NCBI RefSeq assembly: GCF_000008365.1
Contig: NC_006908.1
Location: 480,001 to 512,000 of the forward strand
DNA length: 32,000 bases
Source of the DNA: Mycoplasma mobile 163K
GTDB taxonomy: Bacteria > Bacillota_I > Bacilli_A > Mycoplasmatales > Metamycoplasmataceae
Direction of reading: 5' to 3'
In this document: positions 1-23,547 of the stretch, one piece after another
Position numbering within the stretch: position 1 is the stretch's first letter
Layout: each line of letters begins with the position of its first letter
Made by a program: the position numbers and the translations under genes
The notes under the pieces: generated by a model
Seen by the model: the letters and a program-made list of their open reading frames with translations, nothing else
Database searches by the model: none
Told to the model about the DNA's origin: nothing

Positions 1-1070
1 CTTGCAGTGTCAAAAATATGTAGTTTATTTTTGTCAAAAGTAAAGGTATAATTTTTTTCAACTTGAATATTAGCAGAAGAGTGTAGTGATGCAACAAAAG
101 AATGCTTTCCATCAATTACAAAAAAAGCTTGTTTTTCTTTTCCTAAAATTTCTACAAACTCAGATTTTGCAATAATTTTATCTTCATTATTTTCCTTAGT
201 TAAATAAATATCTTCTGAACGAACACATAAAGTTATTTTTTTTGAACCTTTTATTTGAATTTTTTCATTATCACTATCATTTAATTTAATTTTTAAAATT
301 CCTGATTCACTAATAAAATAACCATTTTCATAACTACCTTCAAAAACATTAATTGTAGGATTTCCAATAAATTTAGCTACAAATAAATTTACTGGTTTAT
401 TGTATAAGTCTAATGGTTTTCCAATTTGCTGAATTTTAGAATTATTCATAACAACAATTTTTGTACCCATAGTCATAGCTTCTAGTTGATCATGCGTTAC
501 ATAAATAGTTGTAGATTCTAATAATCTATGAATTCTTACTAATTCAATTCTCATTGATTCACGTAATTTAGCATCAAGATTAGAAAGAGGCTCATCCATT
601 AAAAATAACTTAGGTTTTCTAGCTATTGCTCTACCTAATGCAACTCTTTGACGTTGACCTCCAGAGATATCTGAAGGTTTATTTGAAAGATACTCAGAAA
701 TTTGTAAAATTTTTGCAATGTCTTTAACTCTTCTATCAATTACATCTTTTCTTTCTTTTCTTACTTTAAGACCAAAAGCAATATTTTGATAAACAGTCAT
801 GTGTGGGTATAAAGCATAAGATTGAAATACCATAGCGATATCTCTATCTTTTGGACTTAGACCATTAACTCTTATTCCATCAAAAACTAAATCACCTTTT
901 GTGATTGAATTTAGGCCTGCTATCATTCTTAAAAGTGTACTTTTACCACATCCAGAAGGACCTAAAATGATTAAGAAGTCATTATCATCAATAGAGAGAT
1001 TTATGTTCTCCAAAGTATAATTTTCTCTTCCTTCATATTTTTTTGCAATATTTCTTAATTCTATTTTCAT
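1..1070 (-). CDS. Sugar ABC transporter ATP-binding protein (MalK/MsmK/UgpC family); 3' end runs off the window
   Basis: ATG at 1068-1070. Translation MKIELRNIAKKYEG...ILGPSGCGKSTLLRMIAG (Walker A), DISGGQRQRVALGRA (ABC signature), LFLMDEPLSNLD (Walker B), YVTHDQ (H-loop). The frame is open to base 1 with no stop of any kind, which is why it is missing from the ORF track. Confidence 0.93.
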   Translation of the reverse strand, partial: MKIELRNIAKKYEGRENYTLENINLSIDDNDFLIILGPSGCGKSTLLRMIAGLNSITKGDLVFDGIRVNGLSPKDRDIAMVFQSYALYPHMTVYQNIAFGLKVRKERKDVIDRRVKDIAKILQISEYLSNKPSDISGGQRQRVALGRAIARKPKLFLMDEPLSNLDAKLRESMRIELVRIHRLLESTTIYVTHDQLEAMTMGTKIVVMNNSKIQQIGKPLDLYNKPVNLFVAKFIGNPTINVFEGSYENGYFISESGILKIKLNDSDNEKIQIKGSKKITLCVRSEDIYLTKENNEDKIIAKSEFVEILGKEKQAFFVIDGKHSFVASLHSSANIQVEKNYTFTFDKNKLHIFDTA

Positions 1071-2793: not shown

Positions 2794-5462
2794 TATGCTC
2801 CTTTTTCTTTAAATGATTTACTACGTATAAATACAATAGATGAAATCACTACAATAAATACTGATACTAATAGAGTAAATGCTGATGCTAAAGCAATTCT
2901 ATTAGGGGCTGTTGTTGTTAATTTAAAAATTAATGAAATAATAATATCTGTTGCGCCAGGACTCCCAGCAAGTGATTGCCCAACTGCTGGTCCTCCACCA
3001 TTAAATAGGAAAATTACTCCAAAGTTATTAAAGTTAAAAACAATTTGACCTATTAATAATGGTAATATTTGAACAAGAATTATAGGTGCAGTAATTTTAA
3101 CAAATTGTTTTCATTTTGAAGCTCCATCAATAGATGCTGCTTCATAAAAATCATTAGAAATACTTTTCTTTACTCCTGAAATTAATAGGAATATATAAGA
3201 ATGTCCTAATCATATTTGAATTAAAATAACAGTTAATCTTGCCCAAAATTATGAACCTTGGAAATCTATTGTTGTTCCAAAAATTTGATTATATATACCT
3301 GAAGTTCCATTCCCAAAAGCAATTGAGAAAAATAGAATTGTGGCAAATGCTGGAATAGCTCATGGCAATACATAAATTGTAGATCAAATAATTTTACCTT
3401 TAATTCTTTTATTATCAACAATAATTGCTAATAGTGTTCCGATAAATATAACACCTAAAGAAACTGAAACAGTTCAAATTATAGTTCAACTTGTAACAAA
3501 GGCAATACTTGGACCAAAATCACCTGTAAATATTCTATCAAAATTACTAAAACCAACTCAGTTTAATGGATTGGTAATACCAGGTATTCCAATTCGAATT
3601 CCATAATCTGTAAAGGCAAGTAATATTGTTGCCATTAAAGGTAGAATAACAATTAGTGCTATTAAAACAAAAGCAGGTGTTAAGATAATTAAAGGAGAAC
3701 CATTATTCGCTAAATAATTTCTTAAGTGTCTACTATTTTTTGATCTTATTCCTTGAGATAACCATTTACCAGTGATATAAGCATCTCTCATAGTTGTTAA
3801 AATAATTACTAAACTTACAGATAAAGTCATAATAGCAATTATTCCTTCAATTAATCTGAATCGAGCATCTAAAAATATATCACCTAGTATTATTCCTCCT
3901 ACATTAGGAGAAAGAATCCCTAAACCAAAAACACCATCACCTTCTGAAGATCCTATTCAACCAAATGTTAAAGGTATTAGAAAAGCTCACATAAAAACAG
4001 AAATTGCTAAAATAATTGCACCTTTTACATATTGTCTATTTAAAAGTTGTCCTAGACCTGGAAGTAAAAATGAAAAGAGCATAGCTATTCATTTTTGATA
4101 TTTTGGCATTTTAGTAGGAATATTTTTCTGAGCATCATCAATTGTTGAGTTCATTATTTTGTATTCTTTTTCAATTTGTCTTTTTTTATCAATATATAAA
4201 AATTTCAATTTTTCACTTGCTATTAAATATTGATTAATTAAGCATGCTGAATTTCTTTCGAATTTCAATTGCTTTTTAGCAGATATAATAGAATTCTTTT
4301 TAGATGATTTAGAAAATTTACCCATTGAATAATCTTTTTTAATTCTCATAATTTCTTTTATGTAATTATTTTTTGCAATTATTTTTTGTTTTTGAATTTG
4401 CAAAACAATTTCAGGAGATTTTTTAGGAGTATTTGCTAATTCTTTTTTTGCATATTCAATTTGACTTTTATAATTTTCTAAAATTGACAAAACTTTAATT
4501 TCATGTTCTAGTTTCACTGAATATTCTAAAATCTTCAATTTTGAATTAAAACTATTATCAGACATTTTTTGATAAACACTTAATTTTGCTTTGATATATT
4601 CAATTTTTGCTTTTTGTTCTTTAAAAGGTTCATTTTTAAATTTTTTTAAAAAGCTTCTTCTTGAAGAAATTTTTCTCAATTTTTTTACTTTGTTTTGAGA
4701 AATTTTTTCTTCAATTATTGGTTCAAAAAAAGCATTTAAATAAATTTTTTTCTTTAATAAGTTTTTTTGTGAAATTCTAGCTTCAGAAATTAAACAGTGT
4801 TTTTCTTTTCACAATTCAGCATATGTTTTTCTTTTAAGTCAAAAATTCTTAATTCTATATTTTACTAGTTTAGATAGAAAAATATTCCTTTCCAATTTTA
4901 GTTTCTTTTTTTGATAATTCAATTTACTTTTTAGTGTTGTTTTATTTTTTTGAATTTGACTTTTTAAATCATTTTCAAGAGAATAAATTTTTTTATCAAT
5001 ATCTACTTTGCTTTCGTATTTATTCAATTCTTCTCTTTTTTGTTTGTAGATTTGTTCTAAATCATCAAGAGTTTGACTTAATTTCAATTTGTCATCTATT
5101 GAAAAATAGGCTAAACTTTTTTCTTGCTCTAATTTTTCATTTAAAACTTTAATTGAGTTTTTAATAAAAATAGATTTTTTTGAATCAAGCAAAATTTGCT
5201 TTTCTTTTAAGAAATTTCTTTTCAAAACATCAAATTCTATTTTACTGTTTTCTTTTAGTTTTATTAAAGCAAGTTTGGATTTAGTGTAACTAGATTTAAT
5301 AGAATAGTAATCTTTTTTAACTAATTCTTTATTAGTTTTTTTAAAGATATCTTTTTTAATTTTATTACCATTTAAAGAACTTTTAATATCAGCTTTAAGA
5401 GCAATTGCTTCATATTCATTTTTATCAGCATATTTTAAATTTAAATTTTTAATGAATTCCAT
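2793..5462 (-). pseudogene. MalF-like sugar ABC permease with a ~457-aa N-terminal extension, interrupted by one in-frame TAA (candidate pseudogene or sequencing error)
   Basis: ATG 5460-5462 with GGGAGGT Shine-Dalgarno (5471-5477). One frame runs to TAA 2793-2795, which overlaps the next ATG as TAATG. ORF-track pieces 4839-5462, 4089-4679 and 3558-3830 are in frame and joined by TGA. The core is conserved: YVLPWAIPAFATILFF..., IQIWLGHSYIFLLISGVKKSISNDFYEAASIDGASKWKQFVKITAPIIL. A genuine TAA at 3249-3251 (...TTIDFQGS*FWARLTVIL...) leaves a 737-codon N-terminal reading frame (3249-5462 with the stop). The EAA-loop portion lies downstream of it. Confidence 0.7.
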
Positions 5463-5463
5463 T

Positions 5464-5895
5464 TTATTTAACCTCCCATATTTTTTCTACTTCCATACTT
5501 CATTTATCACAATTAGGGCAAAATAGATTTTCATTCATTTTTTGTACTATTAAAGCCTGCGCATTTTCATATTCTCTTTTATATAATTTTCCATCAATTT
5601 TTAAAAATAACATGGGCAAATATTTGGTACTTTTTTCCACATAAAAAGTATTAATGTAAAAAGAAGCAGATTCTAAAATATTATTTTTTAATAATTCAAT
5701 TTCACCTTCAAATAAGTTATCGATTAATAATTTTTTTTGCTCATTACTTAATTTTTTAAAAAAATCTTTTTCTTTAACAAGAAGATTTAAAACATCTTCG
5801 ACTTTTTGAGTTTGATTAAGCTTACCGTGTATAAATTCAATTTTTGTTTCACATTTAAAACACTTAGCATCTATTCTAAATGCCATTACTACCAT
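5464..5895 (-). CDS. Hypothetical zinc-ribbon-like protein (two CxxC pairs at opposite ends)
   Basis: The ORF-track piece 5500-5895 continues through TGA at 5500 to TAA 5464-5466. CFKC lies near the N-terminus and CPNC near the C-terminus. Alternative ATG starts are at 5893-5895 and 5884-5886; the second avoids overlap with the upstream stop. I recognise no family. Confidence 0.6.
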
Positions 5896-6374
5896 CTTTC
5901 TTTATTTTTTAAATAAAAATTATTTTGGTGAAGTAAGACAAATAAATAAAATAAAGCAATAATAGCACCAATTGAAATTAATGTTGCAAAAATGCTATAT
6001 CATAATTCGTTTGTTAATAATCAAGAACTTAAAATATTTCCAATTCATAAGAAGGTTCAAAATATTACAAATACATAACCTACTTTTATCTTGCTATATC
6101 CAAAATAAGAATATATTCCGAAAAAAATTATAACTATTGAATTGACAAAAATTTTGACTATACTTTCTAGTTTGAAGCGATCAAATGCTTCAGTCATGCT
6201 TAAATTCTCTAATTTTTTTTGTATTATAAAACTATTTAATTGATCAGTAGATAGTAAAGAAACAAGACCTGAAATTACAATTAAAATCACTGAAATTAAA
6301 GAGATACTAAGAAAAGAATAAAACAAAATGTTATTTAAGTTAACTTTGCTTTGTGATTGTGTAAAAAAATTCAT
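5889..6374 (-). CDS. Hypothetical small integral membrane protein (~161 aa, about 4 hydrophobic segments)
   Basis: ATG 6372-6374. ORF-track piece 6057-6374 continues through TGA codons at 6057, 6045, 6021 and 6000 to TAG 5889-5891. Hydrophobic stretches include ILFYSFLSISLISVILIVISGLV, IVIIFFGIYSYF, VFVIFWTFLWIG and IFATLISIGAIIALFYLFVLL. No convincing Shine-Dalgarno sequence. Confidence 0.55.
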
Positions 6375-6392: not shown

Positions 6393-7877
6393 CTATTCAT
6401 TATTTGATCTATTAATATTTTGTTTAAAAACATTATAAAAAGCATCAGCTGTACTAAATGTTGCAGCAGAAAGTCCAAGTTCATCTCAAAATTGTCAATA
6501 TCTTCCAAATTTAGCAATAGTTGGTAAAGGAACATTATTTTTACTTTGATCTGATACTGATGATATAACACTTGTATAAAGTGCTGAAAGAGAATCAGCA
6601 AAACCTGTTGTAGATACTCAATCAGATAAATTAAGTTTGGAACCATTTGGATTAGTTGGATCAGTTAATTGAATAGAATTAATTATATCGGCTGATAAGT
6701 TAACATTAGCTCCTTCAGTTGCGGAAATTCTACCTGTATTTAGAAATCAATCAGTTGCTAAATCTTTAGAAGTAATGGCAGCTAAAATTCTTTTTGATAA
6801 GTCCAATTTTTTTTGTATTGCAGCAGTATTAGTTGCTCCTAATTTAGCTAAACCAGCTCTATTAAGACTATAACTTCATCCGCTTAGAAAATGAGATGCA
6901 TTTTTATTAGCAACTTTTGGCAAAATTGCAGTTTTTATATTTTGCAACATTGTTACCGCAGCTGCTTTATTAGTTTGATTAGCAAGTAAAATTCTTCCTA
7001 CTAAATCATTTATCATCCAAGGCCCTTCAATTGTAGAAGCTACATCACCTGAAGCTAATCCTTGTCTAATGATTGTATTTCTATCTGAACCTTGAGCTTT
7101 ATTTGCAAAATTTTGGTAACTAGTATTTGTTGATTTTCTTAAATTATTATTATATTCTCATAATTTAGTAACAGTTGATTTAATTTGTGTAGCAATATTA
7201 GTTTGATCTAAAAAAGGTGCTGTTACAGTCGTTCCTTCTTGTTTAATAAATGCTGATGAACCATCAACATACTCTGCAGGACTTAATGTTGCTCCTGCGT
7301 CTTTAAATGTAGATAGTAAAACAGATGATGCATGTCACATATCTGAATATTGTGTTAAAAAGTTTTTTTGATCATTTATATTAGTCGCAATTGCATCTTC
7401 ATAATTTAATCAACCTGTTTCATTTCCGATTAAATTTTTATTAAATATCTGAATTACTGATTCAACATTTAGTGTATATGAATAATTTTTTCCATTAACT
7501 ACACCAAAATTTGTTGTAAATGTAGGAATAGTTCCTAAATCTTGTACTATATTTGACTCAACTAATTGTGAATATCTATCTGCAGGAGCTACAAAAAGAT
7601 CTGCAGCATCTGTTGGTCTAAGAATTACTGTTTCTAATAAATATTGAAGTGAACCTTCATTGGGAATCGGAACTAAATCGACAAGCGCTCTATCTTCAGC
7701 ACTTAAACTATTAAGTCCTTTTAAAATAACTGGTCTTCATGGTTCTTCAAAAGAAAGTTTTACTCTTTCATTTGCTTGAGAGGTTCCGGTTGTTGTGCCA
7801 CAAGCTACTACAGCTAATGGAGTTATTAATGAAATCGCTCCTGCTGTTCCAAAAATAATTTTATTCCTCTTTTTCAT
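6393..7877 (-). CDS. Sugar/maltodextrin ABC transporter substrate-binding lipoprotein, paralog A (494 aa)
   Basis: ATG 7875-7877 with AAGGAG 11 nt upstream (7889-7894). Signal peptide plus lipobox: MKKRNKIIFGTAGAISLITPLAVVAC. I translated the whole gene and it is open except for TGA=Trp. Double stop TAG TAG at 6393-6395 and 6390-6392. MalE-like features: PADRYSQL, EGPWMINDL, FLSGWSYSLN. It is invisible in the ORF track because of frequent TGA codons. Confidence 0.88.
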
Positions 7878-7932
7878 TATGTTATTTTCTCCTTGATTAT
7901 TGATATATAAAATACTAATATATCATATATAT

Positions 7933-7938
7933 ATTATA
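7933..7938 (-). promoter_or_regulatory. Candidate -10 box (TATAAT) for lipoprotein gene A
   Basis: The minus strand reads GGGGTATAATATATATATG, about 55 nt upstream of ATG 7877 and upstream of the AAGGAG Shine-Dalgarno sequence. A weak TTCACT lies about 19 nt further upstream. Confidence 0.4.
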
Positions 7939-7995
7939 CCCCTACTGAATAATCATTAGTGAAAAACTTCAAAAAATAATTGCAAAATGAACTAT

Positions 7996-8029
7996 TTTTT
8001 TGCACAAAATAAAGTTTTTGTGCAAAAAA
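7996..8029. promoter_or_regulatory. Perfect 14-bp inverted repeat with 6-nt spacer upstream of lipoprotein gene A only
   Basis: ttttttgcacaaaa (7996-8009), taaagt, ttttgtgcaaaaaa (8016-8029). The equivalent position in unit B (about 10494-10525) reads tttttgcataaaataaagttttagcgcgaaa and cannot pair. Confidence 0.45.
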
Positions 8030-8053
8030 GTTATTAAATATTTAAAATTAGTC

Positions 8054-8076
8054 AAAAAAATGCAAATATTGCATTT
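8054..8076 (-). terminator. Duplicate of the GH65-stop hairpin/palindrome in unit A
   Basis: aaatgcaaatattgcattt at 8058-8076, preceded on the plus strand by an A-run at 8054-8057. Identical core to 10553-10571. Confidence 0.35.
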
Positions 8077-8912
8077 ATTTTATTATTTTAAAAGTTTGAT
8101 TCTCAAATTTATTATATTTTTCTGAAAGCATAACTTTTTTATTATTTACAAAAACTTCAATATCTTTGCCTTTAATTGTGATCTCAAATTTTTCTTCGAA
8201 TAGTTTTAATGCAATTAAAGTTTTTTTATTCGAACTGTGTATTCTAAACTTTTTCAATTCTCATTTAGTATTGGATTAAAATGAGCAATATCATTATAGT
8301 AATGAAATCCACCATATCCAAAAACAAATAATTGTCAAATAGCTGCTAGTGAACCTGCATGATAACCTGCATCTGAAGAGTGAAAATTAGTACCTAAATC
8401 AATTTGAAGAGCATATTCAAATAATTTATTAGCTATTTCAAGTTCTCTTAATTCAATACCTTTAAGTGCATAAGTAACTGCACTTAAAGAAGAATCATGT
8501 GTTGTCTTATCCAAATAGTATTTAAAGTTTTTTCTAATAACATCATCTGTAAAAAGTTCTTTGAAGATGTAAGTTGTTAAAACAACATCAGCTTGTTTTA
8601 CAAGTTGTCCACTTAATCTCTTAATACCTTCCATTGTATTAAATAACTTTTTACCAGCATCTCCTAAAAGTTGAAATTCACTTAAATCAAATTCAGGAAG
8701 TTTTAAAAATGTATCATTTCTGAATAATACTTTTATTATTTGGTTGTTGAATTTTAATTTTTGAAGCTACTTTTTTGATTAAAGATTTACTTACTTTATA
8801 AGGAATTCTTTTTAAAACATTTTCTAAAATATTTTTACCTTCAATTGTTTTTTCTAATTTATCAAAATATTTTAAAGCCAGTTCTAAATTTCTTTTTGCA
8901 ATTTGATTTGTA
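8075..8912 (-). pseudogene. 3' remnant of the GH65 glycoside phosphorylase gene (copy of 10570-11410), 5'-truncated and frameshifted
   Basis: Nearly identical by eye to the last ~840 bp of the intact gene at 10570-12969. It begins abruptly at the duplication junction 8912/8913. Relative to the intact copy it has three 1-nt deletions (about 8225, about 8719, about 8723). ORF-track fragments 8335-8634 and 8075-8257 lie in different frames. Confidence 0.85.
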
Positions 8913-8920
8913 TTGTTCTA

Positions 8921-10393
8921 CTATTCATTATTTGATTTTTTAATATTTTCTTTAAAGACATTGTAGAATTGATCAGCTGTACTAAATGTCGCAGCAGAAA
9001 GTCCATTTTTATCTCAAGAATCTCAATATCTTCCAAATTTAGAAATAGTTGGTAAAGGAACATTATTTTTACTTTGATTTATTACTGATGATGTGACACT
9101 TGTATAAAGTGCTGAAAGAGCTTCAGCAAAACCTGCTGTAGATGTTCATTGATCTAAATTAAGTTTAGACCCATCTATTTTAGTTGGATCAGTTAATTGA
9201 ATAGAATTAATTATATCGGATGATAAGTTAACATTAGCTCCTTCAGTTGCGGAAATTTTACCTGCATTTAAGAATCAATCATTTGCTAAATCTTTAGAAG
9301 TAATTGCAGCTAAAATTCTTTTTTCTAAATCCAATTTTTTTTGTATTGCAGTAGCATTATTTGCTCCTAATTTAGTTAAACCAGCTCTATTGACACTATA
9401 ACCTCATCCACTTAAAAAATGAAATGCATCTTTAGTAGCTACTTTTGGTAAAATTGCAGTTTTTATATTTTGCAACATTGTTACTGCAGCTGCTTTATTA
9501 TTTTCATTAGCAAGTAAAATTCTTGCTACTAAATCATTTACAATTCAAGGTCCATCAACTGTAGAAGATATAGTGCCTGAAGCTAAACCTTGTCTAATAA
9601 TTGTGTCTCTGCTTGAACCTTGGGCATTATTTGCAAAATTTTGGTAACTAGTATTTGTTGATTTTCTTAAATTATTATTATATTCTCATAATTTAGTAAC
9701 AGTTGATTTAATTTGTGTAGCAATATTAGTTTGATCTAAAAAAGGTGCTGTTACAGTCGTTCCTTCTTGTTTAATAAATGCTGATGAACCATCAACATAC
9801 TCTGCAGGACTTAATGTTGCTCCTGCGTCTTTAAATGTAGATAGTAAAACAGATGATGCATGTCACATATTTGAATATTGTGTTAAAAAGTTTTTTTGAT
9901 CAGTTATATTAGTTGCAATTGCATCTTCATAATTTAATCAACCTGTTTCATTTCCGATTAAATTTTTATTAAAAATCTGAATTACTGATTCTACATTTAG
10001 TGTATAGGAATAATTTTTTCCATTAACTACACTAAAATTTGTTGTAAATGTAGGAATAGCTCCTAAATCTTGTACTACATTTCCTTCAATCAATTGTGAA
10101 TATCTATCTGCAGGCACTACAAAAAGATCTGCTGCTTCTGTTGGTTTATTTGTAATAGTATCTAAATATTGAATTGAACTACCATCAGCAATTTCAACAA
10201 AATCTATAAATGATTGGTCTTCAGCACTTAAAGTCTTAAGTGCTTTTTCGATAATTGGTTTTCATGATTTTTCAAAAGAAAGTTTTACTCTTTCATTTTG
10301 TTCAGATGTTGTTCCACAAGCTACTACAGCTAAAGGTGCTAGCAATGAAACCATTCCTACTGTTCCAAAAATAATTTTGTTTCTTTTTTTCAT
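8921..10393 (-). CDS. Sugar/maltodextrin ABC transporter substrate-binding lipoprotein, paralog B (490 aa)
   Basis: ATG 10391-10393 with AAGGAG at 10405-10410. MKKRNKIIFGTVGMVSLLAPLAVVAC lipobox. I translated the whole gene and it is open except for TGA=Trp. Double TAG at 8921-8923 and 8918-8920. Colinear with paralog A. Confidence 0.88.
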
Positions 10394-10436
10394 TTTATAA
10401 TTTTCTCCTTATAAGATATTAATTCTCATATATATA

Positions 10437-10442
10437 ATTATA
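10437..10442 (-). promoter_or_regulatory. Candidate -10 box (TATAAT) for lipoprotein gene B
   Basis: The minus strand reads AAGAAGTATAATTATATATATG, at the position equivalent to the unit A hexamer. Preceded by a small palindrome, CTTACAATGTAAG. Confidence 0.4.
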
Positions 10443-10547
10443 CTTCTTACATTGTAAGAAACTTCAAAAATAATTGCAAAATGAACTATTTTTTTGCATA
10501 AAATAAAGTTTTAGCGCGAAATAGTTATTAAATATTTAAAATTAGTC

Positions 10548-10571
10548 AAAAAAAATGCAAATATTGCATTT
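10548..10571 (-). terminator. Weak hairpin plus T-run immediately after (and overlapping) the GH65 stop codon; alternatively a palindromic operator
   Basis: The minus strand reads TAAATGCAA-TAT-TTGCATTT followed by TTTTTGAC: an 8-bp AT-rich stem with only 2 GC pairs and a 3-nt loop. The core TGCAAATATTGCA resembles LacI-family half-sites (TGCAA). Confidence 0.35.
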
Positions 10572-12969
10572 ATTTTATTATTTTAAAAGTTTGATTTTCT
10601 AATTTATTATATTTTTCTGAAAGCATAACTTTTTTATTATTAACAAAAACTTCAATATCTTTACCTTTAATTGTGATCTCAAATTTTTCTTCGAATAGTT
10701 TTAATGTAATTAAAGTTTTATTTATTCGAACTGTGTATTCTAAACTTTTTCAATTCTCATTTAGTATTGGATTAAAATGAGCAATATCATTATAGTAATG
10801 AAATCCACCATATCCAAAAACAAATAATTGTCAAATAGCTGCTAGTGAACCTGCATGATAACCTGCATCTGAAGAGTGAAAATTAGTACCTAAATCAATT
10901 TGAAGAGCATATTCAAATAATTTATTAGCTATTTCAAGTTCTCTTAATTCAATACCTTGAAGTGCATAAGTAACTGCACTTAAAGAAGAATCATGTGTTG
11001 TCTTATCCAAATAGTATTTAAAGTTTTTTCTAATAACATCATCTGTAAAAAGTTCTTTGAAGATGTAAGTTGTTAAAACAACATCAGCTTGTTTTACAAG
11101 TTGTCCACTTAATCTCTTAATACCTTCCATTGTATTAAATAACTTTTTACCAGCATCTCCTAAAAGTTGAAATTCACTTAAATCAAATTCAGGAAGTTTT
11201 AAAAATGTATCATTTTCTGCAATAATACCTTTATTATTTGGTTGTTGAATTTTAATTTTTGAAGCTACTTTTTTGATTAAAGATTTACTTACTTTATAAG
11301 GGATTTTTTTTAAAACATTTTCTAGGATATTTTTACCTTCAATTGTTTTTTCTAATTTATCAAAATATTTTAAAGCCAGTTCTAAATTTCTTTTTGCAAT
11401 TTGATTTGTAAAGGCATTATTATTGATATTCCCCTTGTATTCATTAGGACCCATAACATCATTTATTTCATAATGATAATCTTTTGATTTTAATGATTGA
11501 ATTTTTTCTACTCTTGAAGTTCAAAAAACAGCAGTATCAAAAATTATTTCATATCCGTATTTGTTCATGAATTCTTCATCCTTAGTGACAACATAATATT
11601 GATCTACAGCAAAAGCAACATCACCAGGAACATGAATTTCATATTCTCTAGAAGCAATTGGTACTTGAACTCCGGTTTTAACATCAGGCTGCCCTCAATA
11701 TGGACACACTTCTCCATAATTTGGTCTTGCCATTTCCCAAGGATATTGTGCTCCTTTTAGTTTTTTCTCTTTTGCTTTATTTCTTGCGCCTTCAATTCCA
11801 TGATATCTATAAAGCAAAAGATCTCTTGCTACTTCAGGTTTTATAAATAAGTAAATTGGAAAAACAAAAAATTCTGTATCTCAAAATGTATGACCTTGAT
11901 ATCCTTCGCCGCTTAATCCTTTTGCTCCTACATTTAAAAATGAATTATCTTTAGGTACAAAATTATTTATGTGAAATAGAGCAAATTTAAGAGCTAAATT
12001 ATGAAATTCTCCTTGTTCTGTTTTAGCACTAATTTTTACATTGAAATCATTGTAAATTTTTTCAAATGTTTTAATATTTTCACTAAACAATTCATCATAA
12101 GAACTTTTGGATAAAATTTTATAAGTATTATTAGCTTGTGTAACAACTTCTTCGAATTTCATTTCTTTTTCAAAATCAGCAGTAGTGTTAACGGCCATTA
12201 ATTTTTCCATAATAAAAGGTTTTTTAGTAGAAAGAATTGTATTGATTTTAAAACCTACTTGTCTTCTTGCCATGGTAATAACCATGTCATCACTTACTCC
12301 ATTTTCAAAAAATGATTTTGCTTCTAAAGTTTTAGTATCAAAATCTTTATATGCTTTAACAACCATAGTATGAATAACATTTATTTTTGATCAATTAGTT
12401 TTTTCTATATATTGAATTGTTTTATTATCTAAAAGTTTTTTAATTCCTTCTTCTAAATGTTGATTACCTGAATTAGTTGTTTGACCATTAATAACGGGGC
12501 TAATCACAATTTTAGAATCAGTTCCTTCTAATTGTTTTAGTATAATTTTTTGAGCATAAATATTTTTTTTAATATTACTTACAAATGATTCTGTGCTTAG
12601 CTCAAATTTCTTATTTTCTCTATTAAAAGTTATTATCCTTTTTACTTTTCCATCACTTAAAGATAAATATTTTTGGTATTTATCATTTTCATTGATAACA
12701 AAAATATTTCCATCGATTTTAATTTGCATTTGCATTAAATTTGCAAGATTAGCCATTTCTGGAACAGAAGCATCATCACTTTTGTTAAAAATTCCATTCA
12801 CAAAGAATCCTTCTTTATTAAAAGAAGAAAATTCTAGATCAACTGCTCTAATTCCTAAATAACCATTTCCTTGAGCAAAAATTGATTCAGTTTTTGCAGT
12901 ATCTTGATTACTATAACCTTCCTGAATTATCTTCATATTTTTGTAGTCATATAAAATTTTATTTTTCAT
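10570..12969 (-). CDS. GH65 glycoside phosphorylase (maltose phosphorylase-like), ~799 aa
   Basis: ATG 12967-12969, TAA 10570-10572. ORF-track pieces 12391-12969, 11881-12366 and 10831-11454 share one frame and are joined by TGA; I translated the gaps. GH65 hallmark GLSGEGYQGHTFWDTEFFVFPIY...YRYHGIEGARNKAKEKKLKGAQYPWEMA. It sits directly downstream of pgmB (2-nt gap after the pgmB stop), the usual partner of maltose, trehalose and kojibiose phosphorylases. Confidence 0.9.
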
Positions 12970-13643: not shown

Positions 13644-16434
<2,791 letters not shown>

Positions 16435-16435
<1 letters not shown>

Positions 16436-17580
16436 TATTTTTCCTTCCCATCATATAAAATGATTCCATCTTCTTCATTCAATGATTGATTATTTAATGA
16501 ATTTAAAACCATCTTTTCTTTTACTACTGTATTTTCCATAATAATTGTTTTTTTAATAAAAGAATTTTCACCAATTATTGCATTTGACATTATTACAGAA
16601 TCTTCAATAATTGTATTTTTACCAATTTTAACATTTTCAAAAATTACTGAATTTGAAACATGTCCTTCTATTTTTGCTCCGTTTGCTACTAAAGAATTTA
16701 CCACATTACCACCACTTGTTATATATTGAGGCGAATGAGATGAACTTTTTGTAAAAATAGTTCAATTTTTTTCTCTTAAGTCTAAATTTTTATGATTTTT
16801 TATTAGATCTAAATTAGCCTCATAAAAAGTAGAAATTGTTCCAACATCTTTTCAATAACCATTAAATTCATAGGCAAATATTTTACTATATTTTTTTAAG
16901 ATATAAGGTAATATGTTATGTCCGAAATCTTGAAAATTATTACCTTTACTTTTTAACTCTTCAAAAGTATCTTTTAATAGTTGGTAATTAAAAATATAAA
17001 CACCCATAGAAGCTTTTGTAGATTTAGGAATCTTAGGTTTTTCTTCAAATTCTTCAACCATATTATTTTCGTTTGTATTTAAAATTCCGAATCTTGAAGC
17101 TTCTTCAAAAGATACATTAATGGTTGCTATTGTTACATTAGCATTTTTTTCTTTATGAAAATCTAACATTTTAGAATAATCCATTTTATAAATATGATCT
17201 CCACTCAAAATTAAAGCATAAGTAGGATCATATTCATTCATAAAATCAATATTTTCAAAAATCGCATGAGCTGTTCCTGCATATCAATAACCTTCGGATT
17301 CTTTTACATATGGACTTAGCAAAACAACTCCACCATTTAGTCTATTTAAGTCAAAAGGAATTCCCGAACCTATGTGTTTTAATAATGAAAGAGGTCTATA
17401 TTGAGTTAAAACACCTACTGTGTCAATTCCGCTATTAATGCAATTTGACAATGTAAAATCAATTATTCTATATTTTGCTCCAAAAGGAACTGCTGGTTTA
17501 GCGATTTTTTTTGTAAGATTTTTTAATCTTGTACCTTGACCACCCGCAAGAATCATTGCAATCATTTCCTTTTTTACCAT
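16435..17580 (-). CDS. glgC: Glucose-1-phosphate adenylyltransferase
   Basis: ATG 17578-17580 (GAAGGT Shine-Dalgarno). [47 protein letters not shown]. Pieces 17284-17580, 16852-17241 and 16435-16704 are in one frame and I checked the gaps. The TAA at 16435-16437 overlaps the glgD ATG (TAATG). Confidence 0.93.
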
Positions 17581-19748
17581 TACTTTACCTTCTTTTTGTT
17601 TTTGATGAATATGTAAAATCCATGTGCTTCTATAAGGATTTTATTATTTTTAATTTCATTATTTTCTAAATTTTGACTATTTAAAATACAAGTTCAAAAA
17701 TTACTATCTAAATCTATTTCAATGTCATTCTGGTTGATATTTATATTAACTTGAATACTATAATCAGAATCTTCTAAAAGATAATAAATTAAGGAATTAT
17801 TGCCAACAAAAATTTTTACATGTTCTTTAACAAGTTGAATTGTTTCAAGTCTAAAAAGATTATATTTTTTTCTAATTTCAATAATTTTTTTAATAAGCTC
17901 AACATTTCAATAATTCTCTTTTAATTTATTTCATTCGAATCTATTTATTTCAATTGGGAAATTATAAGAATTCTCTACATTATATTTTGTTCTAAAAATT
18001 TCTTGTCCTGCATGAATAAATGGTATACCTTGAGAAATAAGTGTAATAGCTGTTGTTAAAGCATGAATTTTTTTAATTGTAAAATCAGAAAAACTACTTA
18101 ATTTTATTTTAAAAAAATCAAATAAAGTATAGTTATCATGACATTCTACATAATTAACACTTTGACTTAAAAAATTAAACTTCTTTGCATATTCATATAA
18201 TCCTAAAGATCCAGTAATAGAATTTAAAGCTTTATGTCCTTGTTGTCAATCACCAGCACTAAAAGATTTTGAATAAACATTCCATTGATTTCCTTTAAAA
18301 ACATCTCTAAAATAATCATTGAAAAAACCTATGTTTGCTAAAAATCTAGAATTTTCCATGTTAGCTAAAATCTTCTTAGTTGATTCAGAATTCATAACTC
18401 ATCCTTCACCATAAATAATGAAATTACTATTATTATTTTTTGTATTTTCGTCCACTTCTAAAATCGTTTCAATATCTAAAAGGCCCATTAAATCAAATCT
18501 TAATCCATCAATTTTGAATGTTTCTTGTCAATGTTTAACAACATCTACAATATATTTGCGAACCATTTTCTTTTCACTTGCAACATCATTTCCTGTACCT
18601 GACATATTTGATAAACTTAAATCTGTGTTATATCTATAAAAATAATGAGGTGCAAGAATATGTCAAGAAAATGAAAAAGCATCATAAACGTGATTAAAAA
18701 CAACATCCATAACTACATCAATATCATTTTTATGAAAATTATTTATCATTTTTTTTGTTTCTATTAGTCTTAAATATGGATCATAAGAATTTGTAGAATA
18801 AGAACCTTCTGGAACCATTCATTGCAAAGGATCATATCCTCAATTATATTGATTTTCAACATCTCTTTCTTCATCTACGGTTGCAAAATCATAAAAAGGC
18901 ATAATTTGAACTGTATTGATTCCTAGATTTTTTATATGATCAATTCCTATTGAAAAACCATCTTTATTTTTAATACCTTCTTCAGTTAAACCTAAATACT
19001 TACCAGGATATTTAAATTCATTAGAATCTGTAAAATCTCTAATACTTATTTCGTAAATTATTCTATCTGTTTTATTTGCTAATTTACTTTTATAAACAAA
19101 ATTATATTTTTCTAGAAGATCTAAATTAATTACATAAGAGTATTTTCCATTTGCAGTTGATGCTTTAGCATAAGGATCTATAGTTTCACTTGTTATAAAA
19201 TTATTTTCAACTTCATATTGATATAAATAAGATTCAAGATCTCTTGAAATTGTTATTTGTCAAATTCCTTTTTCTTGTCTTTCCATATCAAAATATTCTG
19301 CTATATCATTAAAACTTTTCTTTATTTTTAATCTTAATTTATATGAAGTCGGAGATCAAACTTTAAATGTGGTACTTTGTTTAGAGTATGTTGGACCTAA
19401 ATCATTTCCAGAATAAAAAAAGATTTCATCAAAAATTTCTTTTTTTATTATTTGACCAAATTTTAAAGCTATTTCATAATTATATTTACCAATAATTTTG
19501 TAATAGTTTTTAAAATCTATAAAATTGCTTTTTATAAAAAGATGTAAATACGAAAAAGTATTTTTATCATCAATATATGCAATTTGAAGATTATTTAACT
19601 TTTCATTTGTATTTATATTCTCAAGAGAAAATGAATCATTATGAGTGTAAAAATTTTTTGGTGCTTTAATAACTATTTCGTTAAAATCATCTAAAAATGC
19701 TTCTAAATCATGTGGATTGTATAAATCAAGTAATGCTGTTTTATTCAT
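17580..19748 (-). CDS. pulA: Type I pullulanase / glycogen debranching enzyme (GH13), 722 aa
   Basis: ATG 19746-19748. I translated the whole gene: ...[16 protein letters not shown]..., [45 protein letters not shown]. The TAA at 17580-17582 overlaps the glgC ATG. Confidence 0.88.
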
Positions 19749-21621
19749 TTTTTGCCTTTCTTTGAACTTTGAAAAAAGGTTTCAAAACAAAGCCACTAAG
19801 TGGAGCTATTTTTACATTTACTTCACTATTTTTAACTTCAATTATTTTTCCTATGCTATTTATTGCTCCAGTACCTGCAAATTTTAAATCATCAGTATTA
19901 ATCATTTCCTTGTAATAAGAAGCAGTTGGAACATTTTTAATAATATAATTTTCAAAATATTCAATTGAAAAATTCAAAACAATAAGACTAAAATCTTCTT
20001 TATTTTTAGAATGTCTAGAGAAAACTCAAATTCCTTGTTCTTCGTTTAAATGAACTCATTTAAAAGTTTCATTGCTAAAATCTAATTCAAATAAAGACTT
20101 ATTATTTACATAAAAAGAAAATAATTCTTTTGAAAAAATATTTACTCTTTTGTTTTCTAAATTAAAAGAATCCTCATTTAATAAATGTCAATCAAGACTT
20201 TTGTTTTCATTTCACTCATCAAATTGCGCAAAATCGTGTCCCATAAAAATTAGTTTTTTACCAGGATGTGTAATTAAGTAAAAAAGCATTAATCTAATTT
20301 GAGAAAACTGCTTATCTCTTAATCCAAAAGATTTATTAAGAAGAGATTTTTTTAAATGCACTACTTCATCATGTGAAAAAGCAAGTAAAAATCTTTCATC
20401 AAAATAATATGCCATGCTAAAAGTTAATTTGTGAAAATTATTTCCTAATCTTTCTCAATATGGTTTTTTTATAAACTCAAATAAATCATTTGAAAAACCT
20501 AAATTTCATTTTAAATCAAAGCCAAGTGAATTATTAAAATTATCACCAGTAACTTTTTTGTAATAACTTGAATCCTCAGCAATCATTAGAATATTAGGGA
20601 AATCTTTTTTTACAATTGAAATAATGTGTTTAATAAAGTTTACTCCACTATTGTTTATCCCTCTTTTTTCAAGACCTCCATAATATATTAAATTTGATAC
20701 AGCATCGAATCTTACTCCGTCAATATGAAATTCTTCAATTCAGTAATATAAAATAGAAGTAAAAAAAGATTTTACTTCATTTTTTGTTAAATTAAAATTT
20801 TGCGTTCCTCATAAATAATTTTCTCTATCAACTTCATTTTCATATGAAAAAAGATTTGTTCCATCAAATTCTCTAAGACCATGATCATCCTTACAAAAAT
20901 GTACTGGAACAAAATCAAAAATTACTGCAATTCCATTTTGATGTAATTCATTAATTAAATATTTTAGTTCCTCAGGAGTCCCATATCTAGATGTAGGTGA
21001 AAAAAAACCTGTTATTTGATAACCTCAAGATCCTAAAAAGGGGTGTTCAAAAAGTGGTAAAAATTCCACATGTGTGTAATTCATTTTTTTTAAGTAAGAT
21101 ACTAGTTCCTTTGAGTAATCTTTATAATTTAAAAAGCCATTATCAGGTGTTTTTTTTCAAGAACCTAAGTGAACTTCATAAATTAATATTGGTGAATTAT
21201 GTGCATTTTTAATTTTTCTACTTTTCAAAAATGCTTCATCACTTCAAATAAAATTATTTAAATCATAAACAATAGAATCAAAATAAGGATATTGATTAGA
21301 ATAAAAAGCAAAAGGATCTGCTTTTGTTAGTAATTTATTATCTATAGTTGTGACTAAATATTTATAAGCTGTTCCTTTTTTTAAGTTTGGAATAAAAACT
21401 TCTCAAAAAGCTTCATTTATTTTTGCTAGTAAAAATTTTTCTCCATTTGCAATTAATACTTCAATTTTTTTAGCATTTGGTGCTCAAGTTCTAAACATAA
21501 CTCCACTTTTTCCATTTTTAGTAGTTAAATGAGAGCCTAAAAATTTATAAAGTGCAGTTTCATATCCTCCATAAAATGGTTCTAAATTGAGTGATAAATT
21601 TTTCGAAGAAATATTTTTCAT
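19741..21621 (-). CDS. glgB: 1,4-alpha-glucan branching enzyme
   Basis: ATG 21619-21621. I translated the whole gene: [95 protein letters not shown] at 19741-19743 (8-nt overlap with pulA). Confidence 0.93.
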
Positions 21622-21624
21622 GAT

Positions 21625-23055
21625 TTATTTGTAAATACTTTCTAAATATTTCTTTGCAATTTCTTCTCATCCAAATCTTTGATCCATTCCAAAATAAATA
21701 AGTTTATTTCACTCCGGTTTGTTATTATAAAATAAATTTTTTGCTAATTTCACAGATTTATATAAAGCTTCTGGAGTATATTCTTTAAATAAAAATCCAT
21801 TTGCATTTTCTTGTTTGTCATTATAAGAAGTAATAGTATCAATTAATCCGCCTGTTGCTCTAGCTATTGGTATACAACCATATTTAAGTGAAATTAATTG
21901 AGTTAATCCACATGGCTCAAATAAAGACGGGATTAAAAAAGCATCAAGTCCTGCATATAATTTATGACTTAATTCATCACTAAATTTATTAATAAACTTA
22001 AAATTTCTTGGATATTTATTTCCAAAAGATTTTAAATTAGATTCATAATTTACATCACCTGTTCCTAAAACAACAAATTGAATATCATTATCTTTTACAA
22101 TATTTCATAAGGAATTTAAAACTAAATCAATTCCTTTTTGATTCGCTAATCTTGAAATCATTCCAATTAAAAAGATTTTTTTATTTTGTTCAAGATTTAA
22201 TTCCTTTTGCAATGCAATTTTATTGATTAATTTTGCCTCTTTATAATTTGACACATCATATTTTGCCTCGATGTATTTATCAATACTTGGATTAAAAATA
22301 TCATAATCTAACCCATTTATAATTCCTCTTAATTTACTGTTATATTTATTTAAAACTGACTCAAGACCCATACCTTGCATTGGTTGTTTTATTTCTTCTT
22401 TATAAGTTTCAGAAACAGTTGTGACAATATCACTAGAAATAATTCCAGCTTTCATAAAATTAAAAATATCATTACTTATGATTTCACTTAAAAGAGAATT
22501 CGATCTTTCTTTTTCATTTAAATATTTTAAAACATTTGAAGCTCCAAAAACTCCTTGATATTGTAAATTGTGAATTGTGAAAACAACTTTTAATTTGGAA
22601 TTTTCATTTTTTTCACCAGACAAAAACAAAGGAAGTATTCCTGTATGTCAATCATTTGCATGAATAATTTCTGGTTTAAAAGCACTTAATTCTAAAAATT
22701 TTGAAATTGCTTTATTAAAAATTAAGTAAAAAGTAGAGTTTTCATGTAAATCAAGATAAGCAGTTCTTTCAATGTTTTTAAAACTTGGGTCATTAAAAAA
22801 TAAATATTCAATATCATCCATAACTAAAGAAAAAATTTCAACAGGAAAAGATTTTCCATTTAAATCCAAAGAAAAAAAGTAAGCGCTACGCATCTTTTCT
22901 TTATATTTTTCACTAATTGAGTCACTATAGATTAAAAAAACTTTTATATCATTTCCTAATTTTTTTAAAGTCTTAGGGAAAGAATAAGCTACATCTCCTA
23001 GTCCTCCAGTTTTTATGAATGGAAAGCATTCAACACTTATATATAAAATTTTCAT
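21625..23055 (-). CDS. glgA: Glycogen synthase (ADP-glucose type, GT5)
   Basis: ATG 23053-23055 with GAAGGT Shine-Dalgarno. MKILYISVECFPFIKTGGLGDVAYSFPK (KTGGL motif), FLIPSLFEPCGLTQLISLKYGCIPIARATGGL. Pieces 22648-23055 and 22105-22629 plus the tail I translated down to TAA 21625-21627. Confidence 0.93.
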
Positions 23056-23547
23056 TTTTAACCTTCAATATAGAATATAAATAGAATTTTTCATAGTAAT
23101 TTAATTCACAAATTGAATATAAACTAATTGAAACTTTTTATTTTTTTTACTTCATTTAAATTATATATATTTTATATATATATTTTTTAAAAATATGTGT
23201 ATAAACTTGATATTTTTTTGTTGAACTTATTCAAAACATTAAAAATTTTTGAAAAAATGATAAAAATATGTTCAAAAATTAAAAATTAATATAAAAACAT
23301 GACTAAATCTTGTTGTATAAAATGAAATTTAAAAAGGGAAGTTAAAATAGTAGACATAATATTTAAAGAAACTAAAATTTTTCAGATAATTTTCAACATA
23401 TCATTTAAGTTTAAAAGTAAGAATAGAATTTTTGTTTAATATTTTAAGTAATAATCAAATATGCAAATGCATTATTTAAATATAAATTTTCTAAATGAAA
23501 ATGTTTAAAAAGTTAGAATGTTAAAATATAAATAGATTTTGCTTTTT

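Follow-up and report, generated by a model that had tools for sequence, protein, structure and literature searches.

Mosaic divergence of a tandem pair of MalE-like lipoprotein genes in Mycoplasma mobile 163K

The duplicated lipoprotein genes and their mosaic of identity

The 32,000-nucleotide stretch of DNA examined here (positions 480,001 to 512,000 of contig NC_006908.1; hereafter the window, to which coordinates refer unless marked as genome coordinates) comes from Mycoplasma mobile 163K and carries two neighboring lipoprotein genes, A and B, separated by the 3′ remnant of a GH65 glycoside phosphorylase/hydrolase gene. The genome is one closed contig of 777,079 bp with 25% GC, in which TGA is read as Trp. 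Among its ORFs are two giant neighbors of 4738 and 3188 aa, which would fit Gli521 and Gli349. With translation table 11 the region is without long open reading frames (ORFs), whereas with code 4 two minus-strand ORFs appear. Both are intact, each with 9–10 in-frame TGA codons, and every gene discussed below sits on the minus strand. The features of the duplicated region are as follows.

6393–7877, minus strand: lipoprotein gene A, a code-4 ORF of 494 aa with a signal peptide, the lipobox VVAC, and Cys26
8075 (approximately) to 8912, minus strand: GH65 3′ remnant (pseudogene fragment), between lipoproteins B and A
8913–8920, minus strand: duplication junction, located by three-way alignment
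8921–10393, minus strand: lipoprotein gene B, a code-4 ORF of 490 aa, paralog of A with 82% amino-acid identity, 88 residues differing
10570–12969, minus strand: intact GH65 glycoside phosphorylase/hydrolase gene (Pfam Glyco_hydro_65N/m/C)

The duplicated tandem unit is ~2.5 kb long (6393–8912 versus 8921–11410), and its two copies are 91.3% identical over 2526 alignment columns. The source or partner of the GH65 remnant is the last ~840 bp of the intact GH65 gene. The unit stops 9 nt past the lipoprotein stop codon, and its fusion to a site within GH65 involves a microhomology of only 3–4 nt, which indicates a duplication by illegitimate recombination.

A first-pass annotation of this DNA, made from the sequence alone, had noted that identity is far from uniform along the unit. 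This was borne out by segmentation, permutation, and a binned chi-square test, and uniform divergence is ruled out. Block borders were taken from the segmentation that was optimal under the Bayesian information criterion, in which four blocks were best. Block ages are expressed as maximum likelihood (ML) synonymous divergence (dS).

6393–7102 (partner 8921–9630), minus strand: block 1, 88.0% identical; 3′ part of the gene, with no indels; intermediate age, ML dS ~0.58
7103–7547 (partner 9631–10075), minus strand: block 2, 98.2% identical; gene core, ML dS 0.09–0.12
7548–7971 (partner 10076–10465), minus strand: block 3, 72.9% identical, with indels; oldest sequence, ML dS ~1.15
7972–8912 (partner 10466–11410), minus strand: block 4, 97.6% identical; distal spacer, out-of-frame GH65 tail, and GH65 3′ remnant

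Heterogeneity across 100-bp bins gave a chi-square of 281 (p = 1e-45), and the longest identical runs, of 256 bp for the whole unit and 244 bp for the coding sequence (CDS), exceeded the maxima of 156 and 117 bp reached in 10,000 permutations (p < 1e-4). The 244-bp run lies at 7099–7342 (9627–9870 in the partner), exactly where an identical core had been described by eye; the high similarity beyond it is also real, but it ends at ~7547 and not at ~7600. The GH65 remnant proved to be as close to its partner as had been claimed, with one difference in 8225–8719, but in the true intergenic spacer near-identity extends over only about half the length. Nowhere in the unit is divergence greater than in the 91–113 nt of spacer adjoining the start codon (66% identity, with indels), and block 3 contains, along with ~110 5′ codons, the ribosome-binding site, the 5′ untranslated region (5′UTR), and the −10 region. 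Small indels between A and B, also reported in the first pass, amount in the CDS to 4 codons, all in the 5′ part, and the variable peptide strings quoted there can be found in the translations (residues 44–90 of A and 41–86 of B).

Both units retain their own TATAAT and AAGGAG signals, with extra inserted bases in the 5′UTR of A, and both retain a small GC hairpin and T-run right after the GH65 stop position. Upstream of A, an AT-rich palindrome, TTGCACAAAA-N-TTTTGTGCAA, is seen at 7996–8029. Its counterpart in unit B (10490–10523) is degraded, reading TCGCGCTAAA...TTTTATGCAA, and it is absent from the spacer of the outgroup introduced below.

Silent sites and selection

Pairwise ML estimates were obtained with the GY94 model under code 4, using genome-wide codon frequencies. 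With a single ratio of nonsynonymous to synonymous divergence (dN/dS, or omega) of 0.17, dS was 1.13 in the 5′ block, 0.09 in the core, and 0.59 and 0.58 in the two parts of the 3′ block (3′a and 3′b, the latter being the last 114 codons). The full model gave no better fit than one with a single omega and block-specific dS (p = 0.15), and a model with one shared dS and block-specific omega was rejected (p = 4e-6). The 5′ and 3′ blocks themselves differ in dS (p = 0.0003), and therefore at least three age classes are present. By the method of Nei and Gojobori (NG86), dS was 0.39 in the 5′ block, 0.04 in the core, and 0.18 in the 3′ block.

The same mosaic extends to non-coding sequence, in which the functionless GH65 fragment is 97.6–99.5% identical versus 66% for the proximal spacer. 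For comparison with a relative, the nearest homolog recovered in large-database protein searches (56% identical, on a 1988-bp contig of Logan sample SRR26596557) was used as outgroup. In the core, third-position identity is 0.96 between A and B versus 0.63 for A or B against this outgroup; therefore, constraint at the nucleotide level cannot explain the identical core. Because silent and non-coding sites are as mosaic as the protein, selection on the protein alone is insufficient, and recombination must be involved.

The differences between the two genes had also been described as mostly amino-acid-changing. By raw count this is correct (106.5 nonsynonymous versus 51.5 synonymous), but ML omega is nowhere above 1, and the nonsynonymous majority arises because 78–88% of sites are nonsynonymous, as expected under omega below 1. 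When fitted block by block, ML omega was 0.13 in the 5′ block (range of estimates 0.11–0.17), 0.11 in the core, 0.14 in 3′a, and 0.40 in 3′b. An omega of 1 was rejected at p < 1e-6 for the 5′ and 3′a blocks and was not rejected for 3′b (p = 0.06–0.11); in a post-hoc test, the 0.40 of the last 114 codons differed from the 0.13 found elsewhere (p = 0.022). NG86 sliding windows returned omega values of 1.2–3.5 at two places, a single 5′ window and the final ~110 codons. ML fitting and simulation led to their rejection as largely an artefact of the method at 25% GC. At this base composition, NG86 inflates omega ~2.3-fold, such that true values of 0.17 and 0.40 gave NG86 medians of 0.40 and 0.81, and a true value of 0.40 had a 95th percentile of 1.68, compared with 1.30 observed.

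Differences between A and B avoid family-invariant columns, falling in 5 of 49 of these versus 72 of 262 others (Fisher p = 0.011). When polarised by the outgroup, derived amino-acid sites numbered 36 in A and 23 in B, which is not significant, and a relative-rate test at nucleotide sites found no asymmetry (67 in A versus 55 in B, p = 0.32). Both genes are intact and, judged from sequence comparison, appear to be under purifying selection throughout, with constraint seemingly somewhat relaxed in the last ~114 codons. Accelerated or diversifying evolution of the protein, one of three causes put forward in the first-pass annotation, is not upheld as the origin of the mosaic: dS varies between blocks as much as dN does, omega is below 1, and the selection-only model is the one rejected above. 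Omega below 1 with synonymous divergence equally elevated is the outcome that had been named beforehand as speaking against it.

Origin of the mosaic and rival explanations

The locus is probably best explained by an old duplication that has been repeatedly, and only partially, homogenised by intrachromosomal recombination. A microhomology-mediated (illegitimate) tandem duplication would have copied a 2.5-kb unit made up of the GH65 3′ end (~840 bp), the spacer, and the lipoprotein gene of the downstream MalF/MalG/ATPase transporter. This duplication would be older than most of the identity present today, the promoter-proximal region and the first ~110 codons being the putative oldest surviving block. 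Later RecA-dependent recombination between the direct repeats, by gene conversion and possibly also by unequal crossing-over, would repeatedly have replaced segments of one copy by those of the other, and sharply bordered blocks of at least three ages would result. On this scheme, the 244 bp of the gene core and ~500 bp of the GH65 remnant would be very recent tracts; the remaining core, remnant, and distal spacer (2–4% divergence) would be recent, the 3′ 700 bp (12%) intermediate, and the 5′ island (27%) old. Block 2, as read from its sequence, is the candidate for the most recent conversion tract within the gene.

Patchy gene conversion, superimposed on an older duplication, fits all of the data and is favored among the three causes that had been proposed. 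It is favored because a single process accounts for all identity levels (0, 2–4, 12, and 27% divergence), because the divergent blocks are compositionally normal, and because A and B are mutual closest relatives in all blocks, each being closer to the other than to the outgroup throughout. It is favored also because the mosaic recurs in an unrelated tandem pair elsewhere in the genome and because recA and ruvB are present, both intact (RecA, 439 bits; RuvB_N, 184 bits). This second pair (genome 408072–413482) encodes two lipoproteins of ~850 aa, in each of which the domain Lipoprotein_17 (PF04200) occurs six times. Overall identity between its copies is 91%, reaching 100% over 300 bp (genome 409700–410000) and grading to 62–79% in the flanks.

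Some points weigh against an old, repeatedly converted duplication. No second genome or contig carrying both copies was found among the genomes of relatives, named genomes, large protein databases, or metagenomes, and with both copies known from one genome alone, conversion and import are not formally separable. A useless GH65 fragment would also have to persist in a reduced 777-kb genome over a dS of 0.4–1.1, being kept recognisable only by repeated conversion, and recent duplication followed by import is the simpler account of its freshness. In addition, absolute dS is method-dependent (0.39/0.04/0.18 by NG86 and 1.15/0.1/0.58 by ML), so only the ratios are robust.

The import explanation, also raised in the first-pass annotation, supposes a recent duplication of the whole unit (2–4% divergence), after which homologous recombination with DNA of diverged relatives replaced, in one copy, the 5′ ~425 bp and, separately, the 3′ ~700 bp; A would be the probable recipient, since the 3′ block reaches the very end of the unit. 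The 5′ island is short (7548–7971), has sharp borders, and is flanked on both sides by 98% identity, as is classically expected of imported DNA, and recA and ruvB would serve this process too. The fresh look of the functionless fragment would then need no further assumptions. However, donor-like sequence was not found in any collection searched, the nearest being 56% identical in a lineage for which sampling is almost nil, and A and B are alike in composition (GC 0.314 versus 0.282 in the 5′ island and 0.306 versus 0.297 in the 3′ block, with similar GC3). Two blocks of significantly different dS would require two donors or two events, conversion would still be needed for the contrast between 0 and 2–4% divergence inside the young blocks, and the unrelated tandem pair shows the same graded mosaic. 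Import is therefore considered unlikely, although it deserves to be kept in view.

Far less probable is diversifying or positive selection on a surface-exposed lipoprotein, for ligand specificity or immune escape, after a recent duplication. The NG86 windows with omega above 1, the threefold higher ML omega of the last 114 codons in the post-hoc test, and the somewhat larger, non-significant number of derived residues in A all point in this direction. Against this, dS rises with dN, the non-coding flank of the 5′ block diverges even more, ML omega is never above 1 in any block, NG86 inflation at this base composition accounts for the values above 1, and the differences avoid conserved columns. 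As for antigenic variation, the genome has two full-length copies only and is thus without a cassette reservoir. An assembly artefact, in which mis-joined or collapsed repeat copies produced the mosaic, is hardly credible. Tandem repeats with long identical tracts are difficult to assemble, but the genome is a single closed contig, both ORFs are intact with their in-frame TGA codons, and each identical tract, merely 244–500 bp long, is anchored by divergent blocks on both sides.

The locus is thus most likely an ordinary, partly homogenised tandem duplication and a case of concerted evolution. Concerted evolution of paralogs is well documented in bacteria, for example in tufA/tufB and rRNA operons (PMC6053082). 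The present pair resembles these cases in having identical tracts beside diverged ones in one genome, in silent-site homogenisation, in a presumed dependence on homologous recombination, and in two copies that, from their sequences, both seem functional. It differs in that the tandem unit is young-looking and includes a pseudogene fragment, and in that homogenisation is partial, with the promoter-proximal region and the N-terminal lobe having apparently escaped; conversion is here deduced from one genome. In Mollicutes, antigenic variation is known to proceed by recombination with silent cassettes, as with MgPar in M. genitalium and vlhA in M. synoviae. Segmental recombination between repeated surface-protein sequences would be common to these systems and to the pair described here, but the latter consists of two full genes without silent cassettes, omega is below 1, and recombination would homogenise rather than diversify.

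It is also conceivable, although doubtful, that the divergent island has been kept different by selection against conversion, because the two binding lipoproteins would have sub-functionalised. They would then differ in regulation and in α-glucan ligands while both docking on the one MalFGK-type transporter that this minimal genome has; the island includes a −10 box of its own, the 5′UTR, the signal peptide, and an initial part of the N-terminal lobe. On this reading, functional divergence would show a second time in the relaxed C-terminal part (omega 0.40), and if the copies bind different sugars, they would form a compact example of two binding proteins serving one ABC importer. A related arrangement is seen in Thermotoga maritima, where the closely similar maltose-type binding proteins of mal1 and mal2 bind overlapping but different sugars, that of mal2 binding maltose and trehalose; no gene conversion was reported there (PMC2246101). 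In Thermotoga, however, whole operons were duplicated or acquired, each with its own permeases, whereas here the binding-protein gene alone was duplicated, upstream of a single permease set.

The locus matters mainly as a caution and as a guide to annotation. Where the AT content of a genome is very high, a raw excess of amino-acid-changing differences, and even an NG86 omega above 1, can arise under plain purifying selection, and when tandem paralogs show mosaic identity, blocks that differ in age are the simpler reading. Taken together with the Lipoprotein_17 pair, the data suggest RecA-type homogenisation of tandem surface-protein genes at two independent loci of a reduced genome.

Other repeats can be seen in the same genome. 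Several ~2.4-kb tandem units with 94–98% identity lie at genome 24.7–38.0 kb, and the ~4 kb at genome 39.6–43.7 kb carry an internal repeat with a 66-bp period (~76%). The repeats of this region (genome 24700–43750) presumably represent variable surface-protein genes.

The binding-protein family and its transporter operon

Both proteins begin with MKKRNKIIFGT...LAVVAC(26)G, that is, with an N-terminal signal peptide and a lipobox cysteine, and Cys26 is invariant across the family alignment. Neither copy matched any Pfam family at E ≤ 0.001, so there is no SBP_bac_1/8 membership, and the NCBIfam MalE model gave only 17 bits against a cut-off of 291. A profile built from the seven known family members matched solute-binding proteins in PDB at 3e-11 to 1e-7, in the N-lobe only, including 9kha (3e-11), 2zyk, Lmo2125, and MalX. 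An AlphaFold (AF2) model (predicted local distance difference test, 79.4; predicted template modelling score, 0.79) was searched with Foldseek, and the best matches, 2zyo/2zyn, 5tu0, 1urg, and 2xd2 (probability 1.0, E 5e-14 to 2e-12, target template modelling score 0.63–0.73), are cyclo/maltodextrin-binding proteins, MalE, and MalX. The label MalE-type given in the first pass therefore stands, in the sense of a remote relative: fold and profile searches support a predicted structure related to MalE but outside the curated models.

The two-lobed fold is shared with MalE, MalX, and the cyclo/maltodextrin-binding proteins (PDB 2zyk–2zyo, 5tu0, 1urg, 2xd2, and 1anf), and here too the gene shares its operon with those for an ABC ATPase and for MalF- and MalG-like permeases. 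In contrast to those proteins, A and B are ~120 residues longer, share only 13–18% sequence identity with them, and are lipid-anchored. From the profile motif alignment and the ligand contacts of Escherichia coli MalE, we take D100/R101 and E139 of A to be the counterparts of MalE Asp65/Arg66 and Glu111. All three are the same in A and B, and D100 and E139 are invariant over the family alignment, whereas at the counterpart of MalE Trp62, A has Ala and B has Val. Maltose/maltodextrin may be the ligand, given the context of GH65, GH13, pullulanase, and glycogen genes upstream. The lipoproteins define a small branch of the MalE-like binding lipoproteins, specific to Mollicutes and overlooked by curated models.

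Downstream of gene A lie the following transporter genes, which both lipoproteins may serve.

5889–6374, minus strand: ORF of ~160 aa directly after binding-protein gene A, with no Pfam match
3249–5462, minus strand: MalF-like permease, 737 aa
1081–2793, minus strand: MalG-like permease, 570 aa (NF008231, 1e-39)
3–1070, minus strand: ABC ATPase (ABC_tran), downstream of the MalG-like gene

In reading direction, the order is glgA, glgB-like, pullulanase-like, two glgC/D-like genes, a GH13 enzyme, a HAD-type phosphatase/mutase, GH65, lipoprotein B, the GH65 remnant, lipoprotein A, two small ORFs, and the MalF-like, MalG-like, and ATPase genes. The order of binding protein, ~160-aa protein, MalF, MalG, and ATPase recurs in M. 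agassizii, M. amphoriforme, and M. testudineum, each of which has one binding-protein gene in the transporter cluster. The ~160-aa ORF is conserved in position in these species (161, 162, and 160 aa, respectively) and is therefore a genuine family-specific component of the transporter operon. Two ORFs of ~510 aa in M. testudineum were considered as an independent duplication, which was rejected on finding that the first ORF is unrelated (14–17% identity).

Across 41 species-level relative genomes, homologs of the lipoproteins were at most 31–32% identical. A scan of named genomes recovered homologs in M. agassizii, M. amphoriforme, and M. testudineum only (31–33% identity), and a metagenome scan for lipoprotein relatives gave no match. 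The 56%-identical homolog used as outgroup likewise follows a GH65 3′ end; therefore, the adjacency of GH65 and lipoprotein is ancestral, and the duplication is specific to the M. mobile lineage. The Logan contig carrying it spans from 297 nt before the GH65 stop to 37 nt after the lipoprotein stop. Its end is close to the position of the duplication junction, which could reflect a break at a repeat boundary, with low coverage an equally good explanation.

The MalF-like and MalG-like permeases of M. mobile are far longer than their E. coli counterparts, and permease models match their C-terminal parts only; those of the relatives are equally long (870–879 and 554–559 aa, respectively). At 15260–23094, directly upstream of the maltodextrin-utilisation genes, lies a complete glycogen gene set (glgA, glgB-like, pullulanase-like, and two glgC/D-like genes) of this 777-kb Mollicute genome.

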